Source: Oscillospiraceae bacterium (GTDB lineage: Bacteria > Bacillota > Clostridia > Oscillospirales > SIG627). From it: a stretch of 64,000 bases of DNA. The notes below the pieces were generated by a model that was not told where the DNA came from, did no database searches, and saw only the letters and a program-made list of their open reading frames with translations. The stretch lies in contig SVTC01000007.1 of assembly GCA_015063985.1 (NCBI GenBank), positions 35,477-99,476 on the forward strand, read 5' to 3'. Below, one piece after another: positions 20,206-60,906 of this stretch. Numbering within the stretch: position 1 is the first letter of the stretch; each line of letters begins with the position of its first letter. The position numbers and the translations under genes are program-made.

Positions 20206-21765
20206 TTATTCCTCTGTGAAGTACGAAATAACGTCGTTAAACTTATCGGTAACGTCAGTCTCTATACTGTTCCACATAGAAGCAAAGTCGTTGGAAGCGT
20301 CTCTACCGATCATATGACGGAACTTGAAGGATACGTTTCCGCAAAGGGTGGAGTAAATAAGACCGAAGTTGAAGTTGTTACCTTCAAGGATCATATCGTA
20401 GACCTTCAGATCGTAATCCTCGCTGTCCTCGGAACGGATGTAACGGTACTTCATTACCACCTCGAAGAAGTTGGGAGCAACGGTTCTGTAGCTCTCTTCG
20501 TTGAGCTTTTCAAGAACTGCACCTGCAAGATAGTCTCTGGTGGTGCTTCCGTCGCTGCAGGTGTGGTTCTCAATACCTGCGGGAATGCAGAATGCGTTGT
20601 AGCTGTCTGTCTGAGAGGTATAGTAATTGGTCTGTTTCTCGTCGAACTTGGGCATGGGGAGAAGACCGTAATCGTCCTTCATATCTCTGAATCCGTTAGC
20701 TTCACCAAGAGCAGCTGCGTGGAAGATCATGCTTCCGTTGATGAACTTATCTCTGAAGATGGGGTTGCCGCTGTTATAGTATTTGGTGTCGGAAAGAACG
20801 CCGTCGCACTCGTAAGCGAGAGTGTAGAGCTTGTTGAGAGCGTTAACGGTTCTCTCGGTGTTGTAGGTGAGGTAGGGAACGCCGTTCTCATCGTCTCTGG
20901 TGATAGGAGCATCCATGCCGTACTGGAATGCGTCGCAGGGCATAGGACCGCTCCAAAGAGAACCGAAGCCGAAGAAGTCACCCTCACTCTTCTGACCGTC
21001 GCCGTCGGAGTCTACCCACTTATCCTTAACGAGGTTTGTGAAGGCTTCCATGGTCCACTTGCCGTCGAGAACCATCTTGTAGATTCCTTCGGAACCGCCG
21101 ATGTCAGCAAAGTGCTCGTCTGCAAGACGCTTGTTGAAGAAGATACAGCCTGCTTTTTCCTTACTGGAAAGAGAAAGGTCACCAACGCAGGTGTACATCT
21201 GACCGTTAAGAGTTGCGTTCTCAACGTAGATCTGGTTCCACCAGGGCTTTTCAAAATCCAGGTAGGGGATGTCATAAAGGTTAGCATAAGTGTTTACGCA
21301 AACCATTGCGGGAAGGAAGTAGCCGTAGCCGCCGCAGATGTCATAGTCGCCGGTATCGTTAAACACCATTGCATCGATCTCGGAGGCAAAGCCGGTGCTG
21401 GCAACGCTCTGAGCGCCGGTATACTTTATGAAGTTGAGCTCTACGCCCAGATCCTCTTCTACCTTGATGTTTCTGTTGTATACGGCATCGTTGATGATGT
21501 CATCGTTAAGCTCCTCAACGGTGTAATGAGTCAATATACTTCCGTCGATAAAGAAGTTTACTGTCTCGCCGTTAAAGTTGAGGTCTGCGGGAAGAGAGGA
21601 ATCCACCTTATCTCTGCCCCATTCGTCCTTGTCGGAAGCCTGTGCGGTTCCGGTAGGCTTTTGGCTGCCTGTCTGAGGCTGTGTCTTTGCAGGATCTCCG
21701 CCGCATGCGGCAAACAAAACAAGAACCATAGAAAGAACCAGCATAAGTGTTAGCAGTTTTTTCAT
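20206..21765 (-). CDS. large extracellular solute-binding lipoprotein (ABC-type sugar binding), no adjacent permease or ATPase genes
   Basis: The signal peptide has a lipobox (LVLFAACGG). The size of about 520 aa is typical of family-1 carbohydrate binding proteins. Confidence 0.65.
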   Translation of the reverse strand: MKKLLTLMLVLSMVLVLFAACGGDPAKTQPQTGSQKPTGTAQASDKDEWGRDKVDSSLPADLNFNGETVNFFIDGSILTHYTVEELNDDIINDAVYNRNIKVEEDLGVELNFIKYTGAQSVASTGFASEIDAMVFNDTGDYDICGGYGYFLPAMVCVNTYANLYDIPYLDFEKPWWNQIYVENATLNGQMYTCVGDLSLSSKEKAGCIFFNKRLADEHFADIGGSEGIYKMVLDGKWTMEAFTNLVKDKWVDSDGDGQKSEGDFFGFGSLWSGPMPCDAFQYGMDAPITRDDENGVPYLTYNTERTVNALNKLYTLAYECDGVLSDTKYYNSGNPIFRDKFINGSMIFHAAALGEANGFRDMKDDYGLLPMPKFDEKQTNYYTSQTDSYNAFCIPAGIENHTCSDGSTTRDYLAGAVLEKLNEESYRTVAPNFFEVVMKYRYIRSEDSEDYDLKVYDMILEGNNFNFGLIYSTLCGNVSFKFRHMIGRDASNDFASMWNSIETDVTDKFNDVISYFTEE

Positions 21766-21898
21766 TTCTTTTCTCCTTTTTAATTTTCGAGATATCACCT
21801 CGTATTGGATATTTTATCACACAATAAGCAAAAAGTCAATACAATAATTTATATGCTTCTTATCTTCATAACAGCACCGTGATCGGTATTATGCCATA

Positions 21899-36810: not shown

Positions 36811-37085
36811 TATGTAAACCAAAAGCTTTCGAGCACTGTGTTTGCATTGATGTGATCGACATTGAAAGTTTTTGCCTGCTTTTTTTCAAAACTCACGTCC
36901 CTATCAGCGCTAATATGACCTTCAAGCACTGTGTTTGCACTGACTTTACCGACGTTGAAGGTTTTTTGCCTGCTTTTTTCAAAACTTCCATTAAAGTTGG
37001 CACTGATATCGCCATCGAGCACTGTGTTTGTGCTGACTCTGTCGACATTGAAAGTTTTTTGCCTACTTTTTTTCAAAAAAGTAGG
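36811..37085 (-). repeat. stop-codon-abutting hairpin plus three 93-bp tandem units ending in GGTTTACATAA (locus C); open in frame with the upstream gene
   Basis: The hairpin at 37062-37085 starts right after TGA (37086-88). GCACTGTG recurs at 36833, 36926 and 37019, giving a 93-nt period. The minus-strand frame is open for 91 codons up to the TAA inside the TTTACATAA box. Confidence 0.85.
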
Positions 37086-47764: not shown

Positions 47765-49840
47765 ATGAACATTCCGCTTCCCTCAATAGGCGCCAAAGCC
47801 ATTAATTATCCTCACTTTCCGTCCCGTCAGCAAGAATTCATCTTCCGCTCCCATGAATTTGCCACTCCCTTGCAGATGGCAAAGCTTTTAAAAACCGACG
47901 AAAAGACCGTCCTTGAAGCAATGGATGCAATGGGCATAAAGCCCGGAGAATACTGCGCTCAAATGATGGCAAAAAGCTACATTACCTTGATCAAGCAGCT
48001 CTGGCACGTTTTAAACTACGATCAGCTCCTTGAATTTTTGGGAATGACCTCCGACGAGCTCGCCATCACCTTAAGAGAAGAGGATTTTCTTGATGTAAAG
48101 CTCAAGGCAAAGCCCGACTGCGATCCCCTTTTCTGGGAGGAGCTCAGCCCCGAACAGATCAAAGCCACAAAGCTTATCAAAGAAGCAATGGCAGACGTTT
48201 CCCTCTCGGGAAAGGCCCCCTTTGATTTTGAATACAACGTCACTCCTCTGCAATTCTCAGGCAAGGCAAGCTTCGATCTTCGCATCCTCTACTTTTTCTC
48301 GGGGCTTTTCCAGCACGCCTTCGACGTTGACAGTGAAGAATACCTGCCCGATTCTATGCTCCAAGCCTACCAAAGCATAGGGATAAACGGTCTCTGGACC
48401 CAAGGCATACTCTATCAGCTCTGCCCCTTCCCCTTTGAGCCAAAGCTATCCGAGGGCTGGGAAAAGCGAATGGAAAACCTTAAAAAGCTCGTTGGCAGAA
48501 TGAAAAAATACGGCATCAAGCTCTATCTCTACCTCAACGAGCCCCGTTCTATGCCCGCCGCCTTCTACGAAAAATATCCCCATCTCAGAGGACACGAGGC
48601 ACAAAAGGAAAAGATCTGCCTTTGCACGTCCACTCCCGACGTACAAAAATACCTCACTGACAGCGTGGAGCTTATCTGCCGCGAGGTACCCGACATCGGC
48701 GGCTTCTTCTCGATAACCCGCTCCGAAAATCCTTCCAACTGCTACTCCCACTCCAATCCCGAGACCTGCACCTGTCCCCGTTGCTCTAAGCGCCCCTTAC
48801 CCGAGGTAATAGGAGAATACTTCTCCCTTCTTCGCCGCGGCGCAGACAGAGTCAGCTCCGGTATAAAGGTAATGGCTTGGAGCTGGGGTTGGAACACCCG
48901 CAATCTTGACATTATCCGCGCTCTGCCTCAAAACGTGATCCTACTCAGCCAAAGCGAGCTTGACATCCCCTACACCATCGGCGGAGTCAGCGGCAACGTT
49001 TTAGACTATTCCATAAGCATTCTCGGCCCCGGCGAAAGAGCTCTCAAGGAATGGGAGGTGGCCAAGGAGTGCGGTCTGGAGTTGGGAGCAAAGGTGCAAA
49101 TAAACACCTCCTGGGAGTGCTCCACTGTTCCCGCCATCCCCGTCTACGATCTCATCGAGGAGCATATAAAGCGTCTTCGCGATCTCAACATCAAAAACCT
49201 TCTTCTCAGCTGGACTCTCGGCGGCTTCCCATCAAGAAACGTAATGCGAATAGCTCAGTATTTCCACGAAGGCTTGGATAATCCCGAAGCCATTTCCTTG
49301 ACCCCCGCAGAGAAAAAGGCATCCGCCCTCTTTTGCGAGGCGTTTAAAAACTTCCCCTTCAGCTGCAGCGTTCTCTATTCAGGACCCCAGAACGGCGGAC
49401 CTTCCAATCTTCTCTACGCCGAGCCCTCAGGCTACAAGGCAACGATGACCTGCTTTGCCTACGATGATCTCAACGGCTGGAGAAGCCGTTATCCGGTGCC
49501 CGTTTTCTACGATCAGTTCTCCAAGATCTGCGACATATGGAAGCAGGGGCTTGAGCTTATCCAAAACGACAGCGGCGAAATGGCAACTATGGCAAAAGCA
49601 GCTTATCTCGTCTTCTCCTCCTGCCGCGATCAGATAGCCTTCTACGTCGCCCGCGAGAAAAACGACACCGCCTCAATGGCCGAGCTGGCAAAAAAAGAAG
49701 AGCAGACCGCAAGAGCTATGCTTAAGCTTATGAACGAGAACGCTTCCATCGGCTTTGAAGCGGCAAATCAATACTACTATTCCCGCTCCGTCTTAGCCGA
49801 AAAGATCATAAACTGCCGCTACATCTCTTCCCTTTTTTAA
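47765..49840 (+). CDS. hypothetical 691-aa protein (likely carbohydrate-active; family not recognised)
   Basis: Long uninterrupted ORF with an AGGAG RBS and a CTCPRC motif. It sits among sugar-utilisation genes. Confidence 0.6.
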   Translation: MNIPLPSIGAKAINYPHFPSRQQEFIFRSHEFATPLQMAKLLKTDEKTVLEAMDAMGIKPGEYCAQMMAKSYITLIKQLWHVLNYDQLLEFLGMTSDELAITLREEDFLDVKLKAKPDCDPLFWEELSPEQIKATKLIKEAMADVSLSGKAPFDFEYNVTPLQFSGKASFDLRILYFFSGLFQHAFDVDSEEYLPDSMLQAYQSIGINGLWTQGILYQLCPFPFEPKLSEGWEKRMENLKKLVGRMKKYGIKLYLYLNEPRSMPAAFYEKYPHLRGHEAQKEKICLCTSTPDVQKYLTDSVELICREVPDIGGFFSITRSENPSNCYSHSNPETCTCPRCSKRPLPEVIGEYFSLLRRGADRVSSGIKVMAWSWGWNTRNLDIIRALPQNVILLSQSELDIPYTIGGVSGNVLDYSISILGPGERALKEWEVAKECGLELGAKVQINTSWECSTVPAIPVYDLIEEHIKRLRDLNIKNLLLSWTLGGFPSRNVMRIAQYFHEGLDNPEAISLTPAEKKASALFCEAFKNFPFSCSVLYSGPQNGGPSNLLYAEPSGYKATMTCFAYDDLNGWRSRYPVPVFYDQFSKICDIWKQGLELIQNDSGEMATMAKAAYLVFSSCRDQIAFYVAREKNDTASMAELAKKEEQTARAMLKLMNENASIGFEAANQYYYSRSVLAEKIINCRYISSLF

Positions 49841-50018
49841 CACACCTTTTTGAAAAAAGGTGTGCCAAAAACTTTTATTGTCGATAAAGTCAGCATAAAC
49901 AAAGCAATCGATGGTTTTCTCGGCCCGAAACCATACTTTCCTTTTTGAAAAAAGGTGTGCCAAATACCTTTATTGTCGATAAAGTCAGTGCACACGGTAC
50001 TCTATTCATTTATTTACA
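49841..50018 (+). repeat. stop-codon-abutting hairpin plus two tandem units of about 95 bp (locus D), variant hairpin sequence
   Basis: CACACC T5 G A6 GGTGTG (49841-49864) starts right after TAA (49838-40). The conserved core is CCAAAAACTTTTATTGTCGATAAAGTCAG, and the array ends near TTTACA at 50013-18. Confidence 0.8.
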
Positions 50019-50025
50019 GCTTTTA

Positions 50026-50064
50026 CAAGATCAGCAGAAAATCCTTCTGCTGATCTTGCATTTT
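50026..50064 (+). terminator. intrinsic terminator downstream of locus D
   Basis: A 14-bp stem, CAAGATCAGCAGAA / TTCTGCTGATCTTG, with a 5-nt loop, followed by CATTTT. Confidence 0.6.
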
Positions 50065-50265
50065 AGCGAGACAGACAACAATAATAATCGTTTTTCGAAG
50101 AGAAATTATTCCGCAGATCACAGGCCATCAAAAAACATAACCAAAAAAATCAACATTTTTCACTTTTTTCACTCTCGCCACCCCCTTGCATATCAAAAAA
50201 CAAGAGAGTTTTTTGTGCAACTTTCACAAAAATTCAATATTTTTTTCTACAGTGTAAAAAAACAC

Positions 50266-50294
50266 TTGACTTTTTTGTTGAAATTTGCTAAAAT
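50266..50294 (+). promoter_or_regulatory. strong sigma-A type promoter with an A/T-rich upstream region
   Basis: TTGACT (50266-71), a 17-nt spacer, then TAAAAT (50289-94). Confidence 0.65.
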
Positions 50295-50300
50295 ATATAC

Positions 50301-50514
50301 GTAAACAACAAGAGCGGTTATTTCTTCGGAAATGCCGCCATTAAATATAGCTTACTTCACATCGCTCAGTTTTTTCTCCTCTCTCTTTCTTTTCTGAGCG
50401 AATTTGTTTTTTGGGGTCCCCTCCCCAAACATTGATTACTTGAGCCTTGGAACACAGGCATTATCGTACATAGATCCCCTTTTTAAAAAACGCTTCCTTC
50501 GGGAAGCGTTTTTG
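50301..50514 (+). ncRNA. candidate standalone small RNA of about 214 nt (family unknown)
   Basis: It is bounded by the promoter above and by the terminator CGCTTCC ttcg GGAAGCG + TTTTT (50491-50513). Internal hairpins are at 50314-38 (UUCG loop), 50363-50400 (24-nt all-pyrimidine loop) and 50410-29. There is no downstream same-strand gene. Confidence 0.5.
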
Positions 50515-50524
50515 CGTTAAAAAG

Positions 50525-50553
50525 CATCCCCCGCAAAAGATTTGCGGGGGATG
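50525..50553 (-). terminator. intrinsic terminator of the 50567-52651 gene
   Basis: A 13-bp stem, CATCCCCCGCAAA / TTTGCGGGGGATG. The minus strand is followed by CTTTTTAA. Confidence 0.65.
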
Positions 50554-50566
50554 TGAAATTTAAATA

Positions 50567-52651
50567 CTACTTTTTGACAACGACCACGCCATAGGGCGGC
50601 AAAACAAAGCTATTGCTTTCACAAAGGGAAATAAAACGGTCCTCGAAGGGCTCATAAACGCTTTCCGGCGTAAATCCAAGCGTAATACTCTTTTCCATTG
50701 AGGTGCTGTTGGCAAGATAAAGACTTGAGGCGGTGTGCATACTAACAACTCCCCTTGCGTCCCCATCGGTAACAGACGAAAATTCCGCCTGCAGCTCCCG
50801 CGCACCTTCTATGGATATAACCCCTTTCGGCAATGGCTTGGCACCATTAACGGCGTATATCCTCCATCCCTTTTTCAAAAGCTCGGGTATCATTTCAAAA
50901 AGCTCGGACTCCACAGCGTCCGCATATATCACAAGACTGCGCGGCTCTGCATCCGCCAAGGAAGGAGTATCTATAAAGCCAAAGGAGATCTGCCTGTCCA
51001 TCAAGGCAAACATACATTCCTCCATTTGGCTTTGTATTGCCAAAGCCCGTTGACTTGAGGCATCCTCCACCAAAGGATCCAAGGAAAGCTTCTTTTTCAG
51101 GTCCTTGCGATCCAGAGGATAGGGCAAGCTATATTCATTGAGTATACTGTCGTAAACAGTTGCCACGTCCACGGGATTTACGGTATTTGCCATCACACCT
51201 TCAATGGGATAATGCAAAAAAACATCATAAGGCAAGGCCTCCTCGGTGCTTTTCAGCAAGCGGGAAAACGCCTTAAGTGTGCTTTCTCCGGCAAAGGTGG
51301 GGGCGCAAATGGGATCCACACCATCCATATAATAGGAGTGAAATACACTCACACCCAAGAAATGCTGCATGGCAAGGGAGGTAAAGAGCTGACGGGCAGA
51401 GACCTTGATGCCGTATTTATTTTGGAAATGGCAGGATACCTCATCCATCACGTCTCCCTCTCTGTGCAAACGGGAAACAGACGAAACCAAAAGAGGAGTA
51501 AATGCCTTTTTCCAAATACGCTCCGGCAAGGAGTCCAGCATATCCATTCCCGGGACGTGCATAGTCTTCAATATGGAAAAGAAGCTGCCTTGATATCGGG
51601 GATGATCCGTTATCCTCTCCTCCAGCAAAATATGCCCGGATGATAAGACGCCGTAGCTTTCACAGCATTTGGCAATAGGCAAAAAGAAATTCCTTCTTGC
51701 AAGCTCCGTAAGAAGCATATAAAACCTTTTGCGAAGCTTTTCGGCTCGCTCTCCCTCGGAGAAAAACAAAAAGGGAAGCTGATCCATAAGGGAGTCGCCG
51801 TAGGCATCCTCAAACCTATCCTCCAATCCGTCACTCCAGTTTACCATAGCATAAAGGGGAAGCTTGGGATCGGGAATGTGGTTTACCACGCGGGGTATTT
51901 TCTCTAAATTAAAATAAACCGCCATATAGGAGGGCTCATCCATAAAAAACGCCTCCACGGTGCCGTCCTTAATGTAAGGCAACAGACGGCGGCAATATGG
52001 CTCGTAGGTATTTTTCACAAAGGCTTCTCCCGCCTTGGGATGAGACAAATCGATATATCTCCTTTGCGAGGCAGCATTATGCTGGCAATGAGTGCCCTCA
52101 AAGGCAGGCTTTGTGAAAAACGCAAGACAGAGCAGCTTCTTGTCGCCCTCGTTAACAAAATGATATCCATTCTTGCCGTAATCGGGGCGCAGAGGCTCTG
52201 CACAAAGATCACTTTGTGTAACCTTGTCATCGCCAAAGTAATATGCAAATGCCCCCATAGGCTGAATATGCCCGTAAGGCAAGGGTATATCCCCACTCTC
52301 TCCCGGCATAAGGACCTTATGGACAGCAACGAGAGCCTTTGCCTCAAGAGAAGGATCGTCACTGAGGGTCTTAACGCCTGCGGCTCCGCTGGGATACCAC
52401 TTTTCATCGTATATCCAAAGCCTCAATCCGTGCTTCTTGCAAAGACGCGCCTTCTCCTCCACCAAACGCCAATTGGCTTCGTTTTCTATATAACCATCGG
52501 TGAAATCAACGTTCAGCACAACACCGTCGTACCCCGCCTCTTTTATATTGACCAAATGGGTTTCTGACACCGCCACCTTGGTCTCAAAGGGGGCATCGTC
52601 GGCATAGGGAAAGCCGTGCACCAGCTTAAAAATACCTTTTTTCAGTTTCAT
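50567..52651 (-). CDS. hypothetical protein of about 694 aa (glycoside-hydrolase-like context)
   Basis: Long ORF. I prefer the ATG at 52651 over the TTG at 52690. I recognise no named motif. Confidence 0.55.
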   Translation of the reverse strand: MKLKKGIFKLVHGFPYADDAPFETKVAVSETHLVNIKEAGYDGVVLNVDFTDGYIENEANWRLVEEKARLCKKHGLRLWIYDEKWYPSGAAGVKTLSDDPSLEAKALVAVHKVLMPGESGDIPLPYGHIQPMGAFAYYFGDDKVTQSDLCAEPLRPDYGKNGYHFVNEGDKKLLCLAFFTKPAFEGTHCQHNAASQRRYIDLSHPKAGEAFVKNTYEPYCRRLLPYIKDGTVEAFFMDEPSYMAVYFNLEKIPRVVNHIPDPKLPLYAMVNWSDGLEDRFEDAYGDSLMDQLPFLFFSEGERAEKLRKRFYMLLTELARRNFFLPIAKCCESYGVLSSGHILLEERITDHPRYQGSFFSILKTMHVPGMDMLDSLPERIWKKAFTPLLVSSVSRLHREGDVMDEVSCHFQNKYGIKVSARQLFTSLAMQHFLGVSVFHSYYMDGVDPICAPTFAGESTLKAFSRLLKSTEEALPYDVFLHYPIEGVMANTVNPVDVATVYDSILNEYSLPYPLDRKDLKKKLSLDPLVEDASSQRALAIQSQMEECMFALMDRQISFGFIDTPSLADAEPRSLVIYADAVESELFEMIPELLKKGWRIYAVNGAKPLPKGVISIEGARELQAEFSSVTDGDARGVVSMHTASSLYLANSTSMEKSITLGFTPESVYEPFEDRFISLCESNSFVLPPYGVVVVKK

Positions 52652-52682
52652 TTTATGTTCTCTCGCTAATAGATTATCAAGC

Positions 52683-53591
52683 TCAGTCAAGCTGTTTTTT
52701 CATAAACTCTCTCACAAAAGCAAGATTTTCCTTTTGCTTTTTCTTGTTTTCGGGATAAGCCCTTGCCAAAGAGAGGAAATAATCCTTATGGGGAGCTTCA
52801 TCGGGATCGTCTCTGTATGCGCAGATCGCCGCCATCCTTTCCTCGTCGGTCTTTGTAAAATCATCGTTTAAAAGAAAGTGCTCCGTCGCTACCGCATCTC
52901 TCAGAGAGGAAACAGCCCTGCGCCAAGGATCCAGCTCGGGGCTGATAGCTCTGTCACAAAGCTCCAAGCCCTGGAACTGAAGAAAGCACTTTGCCATATA
53001 AAAATGGCCTTCCTTGGTGGGATGAACTCTGTCGGCTCCGTAAAGCACCTCTTCGCTTGCACTGAGAAGCCTTGTAAGGTAAGAATGGTAATCGCAAATA
53101 GGATAGGAGTTTTCCTTTGCAAACTGCTTAAGATATTCACTGTAGCCAAGCATCAGAGCAGAACAGCCGCGAAGAGGCTCTACACTGCTTTCAATATACT
53201 CGGCATAGGGCGCCGGTGTACAAAGGATAAGCTCTGCACCGATATCCCCGATCCGTTTTACAAAGATATCAAGATCCTTCTTATATTGGCAAAACGCCTC
53301 CTCCAACGCATCGTATCTGTCCGGGCTTCCGGAATTAAGAAGTGTTCTTTTGGAATCGTTTATACCTATCATTAAAACCGCGTGGGTGGGCTCCCAGGGA
53401 AGGATATCCTCATCAAACACACTAAGAGCGGTCCCAAGCCTTCCGCCGGCAATCCCGCAGTTATAAAACTCCACTCCCGAATCGGGGAAATTTTTTCGAT
53501 AGTAGTCTACTATATGAGAAACAAAGTGATTGGTGTGGGTGATGCTGTCGCCCACAAAGCATACTCTCGATCCGTCGCTAAATCTTCCCAT
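52683..53591 (-). CDS. SGNH/GDSL-family hydrolase
   Basis: FVGDSITH block I and GINDS block III. The start at 53591 has GGAGGA 8 nt upstream. Confidence 0.7.
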   Translation of the reverse strand: MGRFSDGSRVCFVGDSITHTNHFVSHIVDYYRKNFPDSGVEFYNCGIAGGRLGTALSVFDEDILPWEPTHAVLMIGINDSKRTLLNSGSPDRYDALEEAFCQYKKDLDIFVKRIGDIGAELILCTPAPYAEYIESSVEPLRGCSALMLGYSEYLKQFAKENSYPICDYHSYLTRLLSASEEVLYGADRVHPTKEGHFYMAKCFLQFQGLELCDRAISPELDPWRRAVSSLRDAVATEHFLLNDDFTKTDEERMAAICAYRDDPDEAPHKDYFLSLARAYPENKKKQKENLAFVREFMKKQLD

Positions 53592-60260: not shown

Positions 60261-60506
60261 AAAAAAGTAGGCAAAAAACTTTTATTGTCGATAGACTCAG
60301 CACGAACACAGTGCTCGATGCTTTGCTTTTCGGGAACAACCCTTTTTAAAAGCAGGCAAAAAGCTTTTATTGTCGATGGAGTCGGCACGAACACAGTTCT
60401 CGATGCTTTGCTTTTCGGGAACAACCCTTTTTAAAAACAGGCAAAAAACTTTTATTGTCGATAGAGTCGGCACGAACACAGTGCTCAATGCTTTAACTTT
60501 ACATAA
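60248..60506 (+). repeat. hairpin plus three 85-bp tandem units ending in TTTACATAA (locus B)
   Basis: CCTAC T6 G A7 GTAGG is at 60248-60271. GGCAAAAA recurs at 60270, 60355 and 60440, giving an 85-nt period. TTTACATAA is at 60498-60506. Confidence 0.85.
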
Positions 60507-60545
60507 TTCGCATTTACAAATGTTATGTAGATCAAACAGAGCTAA

Positions 60546-60906
60546 AAAAGGAAGACCGACAAGAGGCACACTTCCTTACGGAGTGTGCCTCAATTTTCTT
60601 TTTATATAAAATTTGACACTTTCTGTTTGAAAGTGTCATAGTGGGTTACATACTTTGAAATATTACCTATCTCAAAGATAAAAATAATAAGTGATATTGT
60701 GAGACAGGTCTCACAGTGATATTTTTGATAAATCAAAAGTGATATTAAAACCTTGCGGTTTTAGTGATATTTTATTCGCCCCTAAACTCGCAAAGCGAAT
60801 AACACTCGGCTATAGCCGAATATAACTGCGAAGCAATACAACTCGCCTTTGGCGAATAAAACTGAGGCACACTTCCTTACGGAGTGTGCCTCAAGGTCTT
60901 CCTTTT
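60546..60906 (+). repeat. hairpin-ladder element, copy B (TIR-bounded)
   Basis: AAAAGGAAGACC (60546-57) pairs with GGTCTTCCTTTT (60895-906). An identical 31-nt hairpin unit occurs at 60563-93 and 60864-94. GTGATAT occurs 4 times and then ATAnnAC 4 times, interleaved with perfect hairpins. Confidence 0.85.

Follow-up and report, generated by a model that had tools for sequence, protein, structure and literature searches.

A previously uncatalogued family of predicted small RNAs with a strongly conserved 24-nt pyrimidine loop in uncultured gut Clostridia

The window, by which we mean the whole stretch of 64,000 nucleotides that was analysed, belongs to an uncultured, spore-forming Clostridium-class bacterium whose own contigs come from metagenomes and whose closest relatives are herbivore-gut Clostridia; spoIIR is present in it. 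The locus studied here is an intergenic gap of 726 nt between a 691-aa gene on the plus strand (47765-49840) and a convergent 707-aa gene on the minus strand (50567-52690). Contigs that match it exactly or almost exactly are present in at least 10 metagenome samples, the intergenic region being 99-100% identical among them. A 119-aa ORF (49945-50304) is called as a gene in metagenome records, and we treated it as spurious because it is without a Pfam match, lies in a region of ~30-37% G+C and spans the conserved candidate operator and promoter described below.

The gap also holds a terminator-like element at 50026-50058, consisting of a perfect 14-bp hairpin (CAAGATCAGCAGAA/TTCTGCTGATCTTG) followed by GCATTTT, which lies past a set of tandem repeats and ~240 nt upstream of the RNA promoter. 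Such tandem intergenic repeats, made of 85-95-nt units, are found just downstream of genes at 49845-49988, 60263-60517 and, on the opposite strand, 36828-37078. Each unit carries a terminator-like hairpin (CCTTTTTgaAAAAAGG type) and then the box CTTTTATTGTCGATA(A/G)AGTC, with two to three units per site, and the repeats have no match in Rfam. A separate repeat region at 60545-60905 contains identical 31-nt hairpin-forming repeats (GAGGCACACTTCCTTACGGAGTGTGCCTCAA) at 60563-93 and 60864-94, enclosed by inverted AAAAGGAAGACC/GGTCTTCCTTTT; the ~270 nt between them include four AGTGATATT repeats and several CGAATAA-like repeats, so that the region looks like iterons or an origin, or a small mobile cassette.

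In the second half of the gap, a sigma-A-type promoter is found on the plus strand at 50266-50294, with a -35 box TTGACT (50266-71), a 17-nt spacer and a -10 box TAAAAT (50289-94), the latter extended by a TG at 50286-87, two bases ahead of TAAAAT. It is preceded by an A/T-rich, UP-element-like tract (50230-50265, plus strand) and, scoring 10/12, is the top promoter-like site of the region. Matches of this quality are not rare, however, with 47 in the 64-kb window, 11 of them having the TG, so promoter and terminator signals alone are no proof of a gene and the weight of the RNA promoter rests on its conservation in homologues. The same arrangement with the same hexamers (TTGACT-17-TAAAAT with TG) recurs at 21839 on the minus strand, upstream of the minus-strand gene at 20206-21798.

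Transcription would start at a G seven nt past the -10 box and produce a predicted transcript of ~214 nt (50301-50514, plus strand). It would end at an intrinsic terminator (50486-50513, plus strand) composed of A5, CGCUUCC, UUCG, GGAAGCG and U5, which corresponds in the DNA to CGCTTCC at 50491-97, the loop TTCG, GGAAGCG at 50502-08 and T5 at 50509-13. As the hairpin lies within a perfect 12-nt A5/T5 inverted repeat, it can terminate transcription in both directions; a simple terminator scan missed 50491-50513, probably because the stem runs into the T run. On the minus strand, the convergent 707-aa gene has a terminator of its own (50525-50553; 13 pairs and then a T run), which bounds the RNA without being part of it. 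An earlier note on this DNA, made from the letters alone, had proposed a standalone unit with a near-consensus promoter at 50266-94, a terminator at 50491-513 and a neighbour on the opposite strand with its own terminator, and all of these elements are present, the last as a 13-bp terminator at 50553-50525.

For the predicted transcript (50301-50514, plus strand), the fold z-score is -4.68, and none of 200 shuffled sequences folds as stably; the opposite strand has a z-score of -2.39. The three hairpins that the earlier note had named are present in both the minimum-free-energy and the centroid folds of 50301-50514. The first, here called the 5' hairpin (50314-50338, plus strand), has the sequence GCGGU-UAUUUC-UUCG-GAAAU-GCCGC. 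A single-stranded lead-in at 50350-50362 on the plus strand (GCUUACUUCACAU in the window, GAUUNCUUCCCGU in the consensus of the family described below) leads to the second, the P1 stem-loop (50363-50400, plus strand), in which the stem CGCTCAG/CTGAGCG (50363-69/50394-400) presents the loop UUUUUUCUCCUCUCUCUUUCUUUU (50370-50393, plus strand); the 24 nt of this loop are all pyrimidine, as had been claimed. The third, P2 (50410-50429, plus strand), reads UUUGGGG-UCCCCU-CCCCAAA, with a core of GGGG (50413-16) and CCCC (50423-26). A fourth hairpin, P3 (50444-50459, plus strand), which is conserved and was absent from the earlier list, has the form GCCU-UGGAACAC-AGGC (GCCT/AGGC at 50444-47/50456-59) and is followed by a U-rich AUUAUCG.

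Searches against known RNAs returned no match. With Rfam 15 at gathering scores, a set that includes 6S, SRP, tmRNA, RNase P, RsaE/RoxS and the Clostridiales motifs, there was none anywhere in the 64-kb window; the earlier note, too, had not recognised the RNA as 6S, SRP, tmRNA or RNase P RNA. Relaxing the threshold to E<=10 over 49800-50620 yielded terminator-driven noise only, with 25 bits for the best hit, whose family has a gathering score of 54. The RNA of two homologues (L148 and L123, see below) had no Rfam 15 match either, and a literature search with the loop sequence matched no paper. Apart from a resemblance over 40 nt to A/T-rich promoter sequence in plasmids of Campylobacter, phage and plasmid collections gave no match. 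Pattern matches in viral contigs numbered 0 and 3, the 3 being without extended similarity.

Flanking-gene synteny did not lead to a related RNA copy either through the 707-aa or through the 691-aa gene. The nearest relatives of the 707-aa gene are at most 75% identical (47% for the best match in a scan of a genome collection), and the locus of the 75% relative, L091, lacks the RNA and has another gene in the convergent position. For the 691-aa gene, the identity of relatives falls from 98% to 58% with none in between. When the RNA was searched with nhmmer against 90 loci, same-species copies were the only matches.

Homologues were found by two routes. In a metagenome scan, a 20-mer of the loop matched 64 loci, among which L148 and L123 proved to be true homologues across the whole unit (nhmmer E-values of 5.5e-22 and 6.6e-8, respectively). 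The second route used as bait a small protein encoded beside the RNA in these homologues and is independent of the RNA sequence; it yielded three more distinct homologues, L163, L164 and L166 (L167 is identical to L166), and the RNA was present on every contig from this route with enough upstream sequence. The family thus comprises six distinct sequences, namely the window copy, L148, L123, L163, L164 and L166, with homologue RNA lengths of 197-241 nt. A covariance model, R1, built from the five homologues with the window copy left out, recovers that copy with a score of 78.3 bits (E ~7e-17), and a scan with R1 over 65 sources (~0.5 Mb) found no members beyond the known ones.

Conservation within the family is concentrated in P1 and its loop. 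Mean pairwise identity is 97% for the 38-nt P1 stem-loop, compared to 52% for the 5' region (40-60 nt), 78% for the lead-in and 63% for the 3' region; between the window and the five homologues, P1 with its loop is 95-100% identical and the flanking RNA 51-64%. The 24-nt loop is identical in L148, L123, L163 and L166 and has one C fewer in L164. As L148 and L123 were chosen via 20 of the 24 loop bases, their loop identity is partly by construction, but L163, L164 and L166 were selected without use of the loop sequence. The loop is the element under the strongest selection. Furthermore, it has an unpaired probability of ~1.00 in independent single-sequence folds of all six members, and no ensemble fold predicts pairing within the molecule between the loop and the purine-rich 5' element (CAAGAG or CAGGAGG).

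Outside the loop, it is structure that is kept. Independent single-sequence folds of the six members all predict P1, P2 and P3. The GGGG/CCCC stem of P2 is found in 6/6 members, closed by an A-U pair in five of them and by U-A in the window, around a variable loop of 6-7 nt with unrelated sequences. In P3, the stem GCCU/AGGC is exchanged in a compensatory manner for GCCC/GGGC (GCCY/RGGC family-wide), and the loop is UGGAACAC in half of the members, the other half having a GNRA tetraloop. P1 itself carries a compensatory change from A-U to G-C in L166 (CGCTCGG/CCGAGCG). Structural tests were run on a model-based alignment fitted to R1, since the MAFFT alignments A6 and A7 misalign P2 of the window. 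In this model-fitted alignment, standard pairs occupy 99.1% of pair cells, compared to 21-53% when the partners are slid, three pairs are changed on both sides, and 0 of 500 shuffles reach the covariation score; these values come from only six sequences and from an alignment biased towards the model. A G-U pair in L163 is compatible with the sense strand only. Together, the compensatory changes, the G-U pair and the strand-specific folding argue for selection acting on an RNA.

Of the elements that the earlier note had named, P1 with its loop and the stem of P2 are kept outside this genome, and the UUCG-capped 5' hairpin is confined to this species. Some 5' hairpin is folded in every member, with unrelated sequences and weakly in L123 and L166. 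For P2, likewise, only the GGGG/CCCC stem is conserved and not the CCCC of the loop, and the lead-in reads CUUCCC in the homologues as opposed to CUUCAC in the window.

The signals that bound the transcript are shared by the family as well. The promoter blocks TTGACTTT and TAAAAT are invariant in 6/6 members, the GT at the predicted start is retained in 5/6, and the A/T-rich tract is partly kept (TTTTTTTCTACAnnGTAAAAAA) in L148, L166 and the window, L123, L163 and L164 being T-rich there. Every homologue has its own G+C-rich 3' hairpin, of differing sequence, followed by a U run that is clear in the window, L148, L123 and L166, weak in L163 and cut by the contig end in L164. The next gene is convergent in the window and L123; in L163 the adjacent gene is convergent and ~535 nt off, and in L148 the RNA is followed by repeats and a tRNA. 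A riboswitch or other cis-acting leader was therefore rejected, there being no co-oriented downstream gene at these loci, and the promoter, core structure and terminator are kept across differing genomic contexts, in line with the earlier view that the unit is not a 5' leader. All six members display the layout generic to trans-acting sRNAs, i.e. an own promoter and a Rho-independent terminator without a co-oriented downstream gene, together with a conserved, accessible single-stranded seed, a structure supported by covariation and the lack of a conserved ORF. On this comparative evidence, 50301-50514 is predicted to be a self-contained gene for a ~214-nt non-coding RNA, which belongs to a putative sRNA family of uncultured gut Clostridia that is absent from Rfam 15 and previously uncatalogued.

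Upstream of the promoter, the family shares a palindrome, TTGTGCAAnnTTCACAA, which is followed by an A-run and ends exactly 36 bp before the -35 box in 6/6 members. In the window this operator-like site spans 17 bp (50213-50229, TTGTGCAA-C-TTTCACAA, not assigned to a strand), is centred at about -79.5 and is the single perfect match in the 64 kb. No member shows a change in the TTGTGCA half or in the A-run, the right half has a one-base change in L166 (TTAACAA), and L123, L163 and L164 have a second copy of the palindrome 33 bp further upstream. The half-sites of TTGTGCAA-N-TTTCACAA are Rex- or CRP-like, but the site is 17 bp long and centred near -79.5, and the Rex consensus is 18 bp (TTGTGAA-N4-TTCACAA). 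A dimeric transcription factor bound to the palindrome would control expression of the sRNA.

In 5/5 homologues, the RNA is divergent from, and head to head with, the gene of the 63-64-aa protein that served as bait, with the palindrome lying between the two. This protein is weakly similar to the Pfam entries Se_S_carrier and DUF2007 and follows the pattern MxxIKxSSMTNAxxxxSALR..IEKGxxGGCA. Wherever the downstream gene could be identified (L148 and L163), it encodes a class V aminotransferase. No operon of a Se/S-carrier-like gene and an aminotransferase gene was found within the 64 kb of the window. The position of the RNA beside a cysteine-desulfurase-like operon, with a shared operator region in most members, suggests a sulfur, selenium or redox cue.

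Variation within the species is seen in the contig L003. L003 and the window differ at six positions in 8,699 nt, and all six fall within 50401-50456 (L003:5260-5315), for which, by our own estimate, the chance under uniform mutation is ~1e-10. The substitutions break P2 and the closing pair of P3, and one of the changes, A to C at 50456, is shared by L009. As both P2 and P3 are damaged in L003, the 3' domain may be dispensable here. A hotspot might account for the cluster, as might a conversion tract, recombination involving a diverged allele, an assembly chimera, or selection on the 3' domain that is either relaxed or diversifying.

With regard to function, we consider it most likely, with moderate confidence, that the RNA is a trans-acting sRNA with its own promoter and terminator, controlled by a transcription factor and working via a pyrimidine loop that is left unpaired in every fold and that probably pairs with ribosome-binding regions rich in purines. 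The exposed CU-rich loop would act in trans on long purine-rich stretches, such as Shine-Dalgarno regions, and the pairing would block ribosome binding on several mRNAs, a mode of action like that of the C-rich loops in RoxS/RsaE or of the long GU-rich R1 region in GcvB. P2, P3 and the terminator would then be modules for scaffolding, for stability or for a chaperone. The complement of the loop, AAAAGAAAGAGAGAGGAGAAAAAA, resembles an idealised Gram-positive ribosome-binding region, and the loop includes CUCCUC, a good complement to GGAG-type ribosome-binding sites.

Duplex scans of the window and of the conserved neighbour gene gave no target above the ordinary background of ribosome-binding sites. 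The loop duplex with the ribosome-binding site of the neighbour gene reaches -9.6 to -12.8 kcal/mol, which equals background (mean of -11.1 for 49 window sites), and the best duplex that the window offers, at -26.3 kcal/mol, is with a site within the coding sequence of spoIIR that specifies the residues GKGEGEN. An exact complement to a 20-mer of the loop, AAAAGAAAGAGAGAGGAGAA, occurs in 11 metagenome contigs (L109, L116, L117, L120, L122, L126, L129, L132, L145, L155 and L156), at the end of a small ORF, where it encodes a KRKRERR C-terminus, and overlaps the ribosome-binding site of the gene that follows (MGRKMDLENWVIEQGMECQ...). We take the small ORF and this following gene to be a widespread mobile-element gene pair and judged the match most likely to be a coincidence in low-complexity sequence, so these loci were not counted as sRNA targets.

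The invariance of the loop at 24/24 positions, without a single C/U exchange, is stricter than generic, wobble-tolerant Shine-Dalgarno pairing needs. The lack of C/U exchanges argues for a partner more exacting than generic Shine-Dalgarno sites and leaves the protein-sponge model as a serious rival, to which we would give a clearly smaller but real chance. According to this model, the loop would bind a pyrimidine-binding protein, such as a cold-shock protein, ribosomal protein S1, Hfq or Rho, and titrate or deliver this protein rather than pair with mRNAs. Sequence-specific recognition by a protein fits better with a loop that is invariant even in members found without its sequence, in RNAs whose flanks are ~50-60% identical, and the duplex scans gave no specific mRNA partner. 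Tight binding to pyrimidine-rich tracts of 6-7 nt (UCUUU type) is known for Bacillus cold-shock proteins, and there would be room for three or four such tracts in the loop. On the other hand, long conserved single-stranded seeds are also known from multi-target pairing RNAs such as GcvB, and the good complementarity of CUCCUC to GGAG-type ribosome-binding sites speaks for pairing. A broader and more speculative version, which we think rather unlikely, is that the loop is not an ordinary seed but a decoy mimicking an extended anti-Shine-Dalgarno or a pyrimidine-tract ligand. It would then either titrate a protein that binds RNA globally (cold-shock protein, S1, Hfq or Rho) or bind to ribosome-binding sites rich in purines across the whole genome. 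If this were true, the RNA would be a global translation modulator, switched by a factor that also controls a sulfur/selenium-mobilising operon.

It seems improbable that the function of the conserved block lies in cis or in the DNA itself and that the RNA is a by-product. In such a case the block might regulate or insulate the divergent aminotransferase operon, or be a bidirectional terminator module or a triplex-prone polypyrimidine tract. The head-to-head arrangement with the Se/S-carrier-like and aminotransferase genes in 5/5 homologues, with the palindrome in between, and the bidirectional terminator of the window would be compatible with such a role, but palindrome, promoter and RNA are all kept in the window, where there is no such operon within 64 kb. 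Moreover, the invariant promoter points into the RNA, and the compensatory changes, the G-U pair and the strand-specific folding point to selection at the RNA level.

Hardly any weight can be given to the idea that the unit is an mRNA for the small hydrophobic peptide MPPLNIAYFTSLSFFSSLFLF, e.g. a type I toxin with its start codon sequestered in the 5' hairpin and an antisense RNA from a weak promoter-like site on the minus strand (50487-50460): the 21-codon ORF does exist at 50332-50397 and, as the earlier note had recorded, is hydrophobic and has no Shine-Dalgarno sequence before its ATG, and the minus-strand site scores 9/12, but no ORF is kept across the loop in the homologues, the start codon of this frame is absent in L148 and L163, the frame is shifted by the 1-nt loop deletion in L164 and the stop is lost through the covarying stem pair in L166. 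Very short hydrophobic type I toxins are known, such as Ibs with 19 aa, but hydrophobicity is automatic for any translated U/C tract, and conservation tracks the RNA structure, with its compensatory pairs, and not codons. With start, frame and stop unconserved and no Shine-Dalgarno sequence, both the type I toxin and the small-protein readings are effectively refuted.

The transcription-factor-controlled sRNA acting through its loop is the preferred reading. A single-stranded tract of 24 bases that is free of substitutions in RNAs that are about half diverged indicates unusually strong selection and points to a precise partner. Hardly any regulatory RNAs have been mapped in the uncultured Clostridia of herbivore guts, and the consensus structure, the covariance model, the conserved promoter and the candidate operator make this family searchable in any genome or metatranscriptome.

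Among known regulators, the closest likeness is to RoxS/RsaE (RF01820), which, like the window RNA, is a standalone gene of 100-200 nt with pyrimidine-rich loop motifs complementary to G-rich Shine-Dalgarno regions. RoxS pairs its C-rich regions with G-rich target sites and is repressed by the transcription factor Rex (PMC5419742), which has a half-site of the TGTG/CACA type; the upstream palindrome is a candidate parallel here. There is no sequence or covariance-model similarity between the two RNAs, however, and RoxS has four short CCC(C) motifs whereas the window RNA has one 24-nt CU tract. Membership in RoxS/RsaE, for which at least two conserved C-rich motifs (UCCC/CCCC) would be expected, was rejected, as none of the five homologues has the lone CCCC loop motif (50418-21) in its P2 loop. 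Furthermore, the Rex box of RoxS lies downstream of its promoter, whereas the palindrome of the window lies at about -80 and, with 17 bp, is one bp shorter than the Rex consensus.

Other RNAs resemble the family in single traits. Staphylococcal Rsa RNAs and RNAIII occlude Shine-Dalgarno sequences with C-rich hairpin loops carrying a UCCC motif; they show a short UCCC in several loops, whereas there is one long loop here, in which U is kept as strictly as C. The R1 region of GcvB, an Hfq-dependent RNA of Proteobacteria, is a long, strictly conserved, single-stranded, low-complexity and G/U-rich seed that targets C/A-rich elements. The likeness lies in a conserved single-stranded seed of ~25-30 nt able to address many mRNAs via one compositional class of site, although there is no homology and R1 is G/U-rich. 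Sponges of the CsrB/RsmZ type similarly show a conserved, repeated, low-complexity single-stranded motif on a stem, but CsrB-type RNAs present many GGA loops to CsrA, whereas the window RNA has a single loop without GGA. By analogy with these systems, we would place the RNA as a probable new family within the Firmicute regulators with CU- or C-rich loops, distinguished from them by a single invariant 24-nt polypyrimidine loop and a conserved upstream candidate operator.
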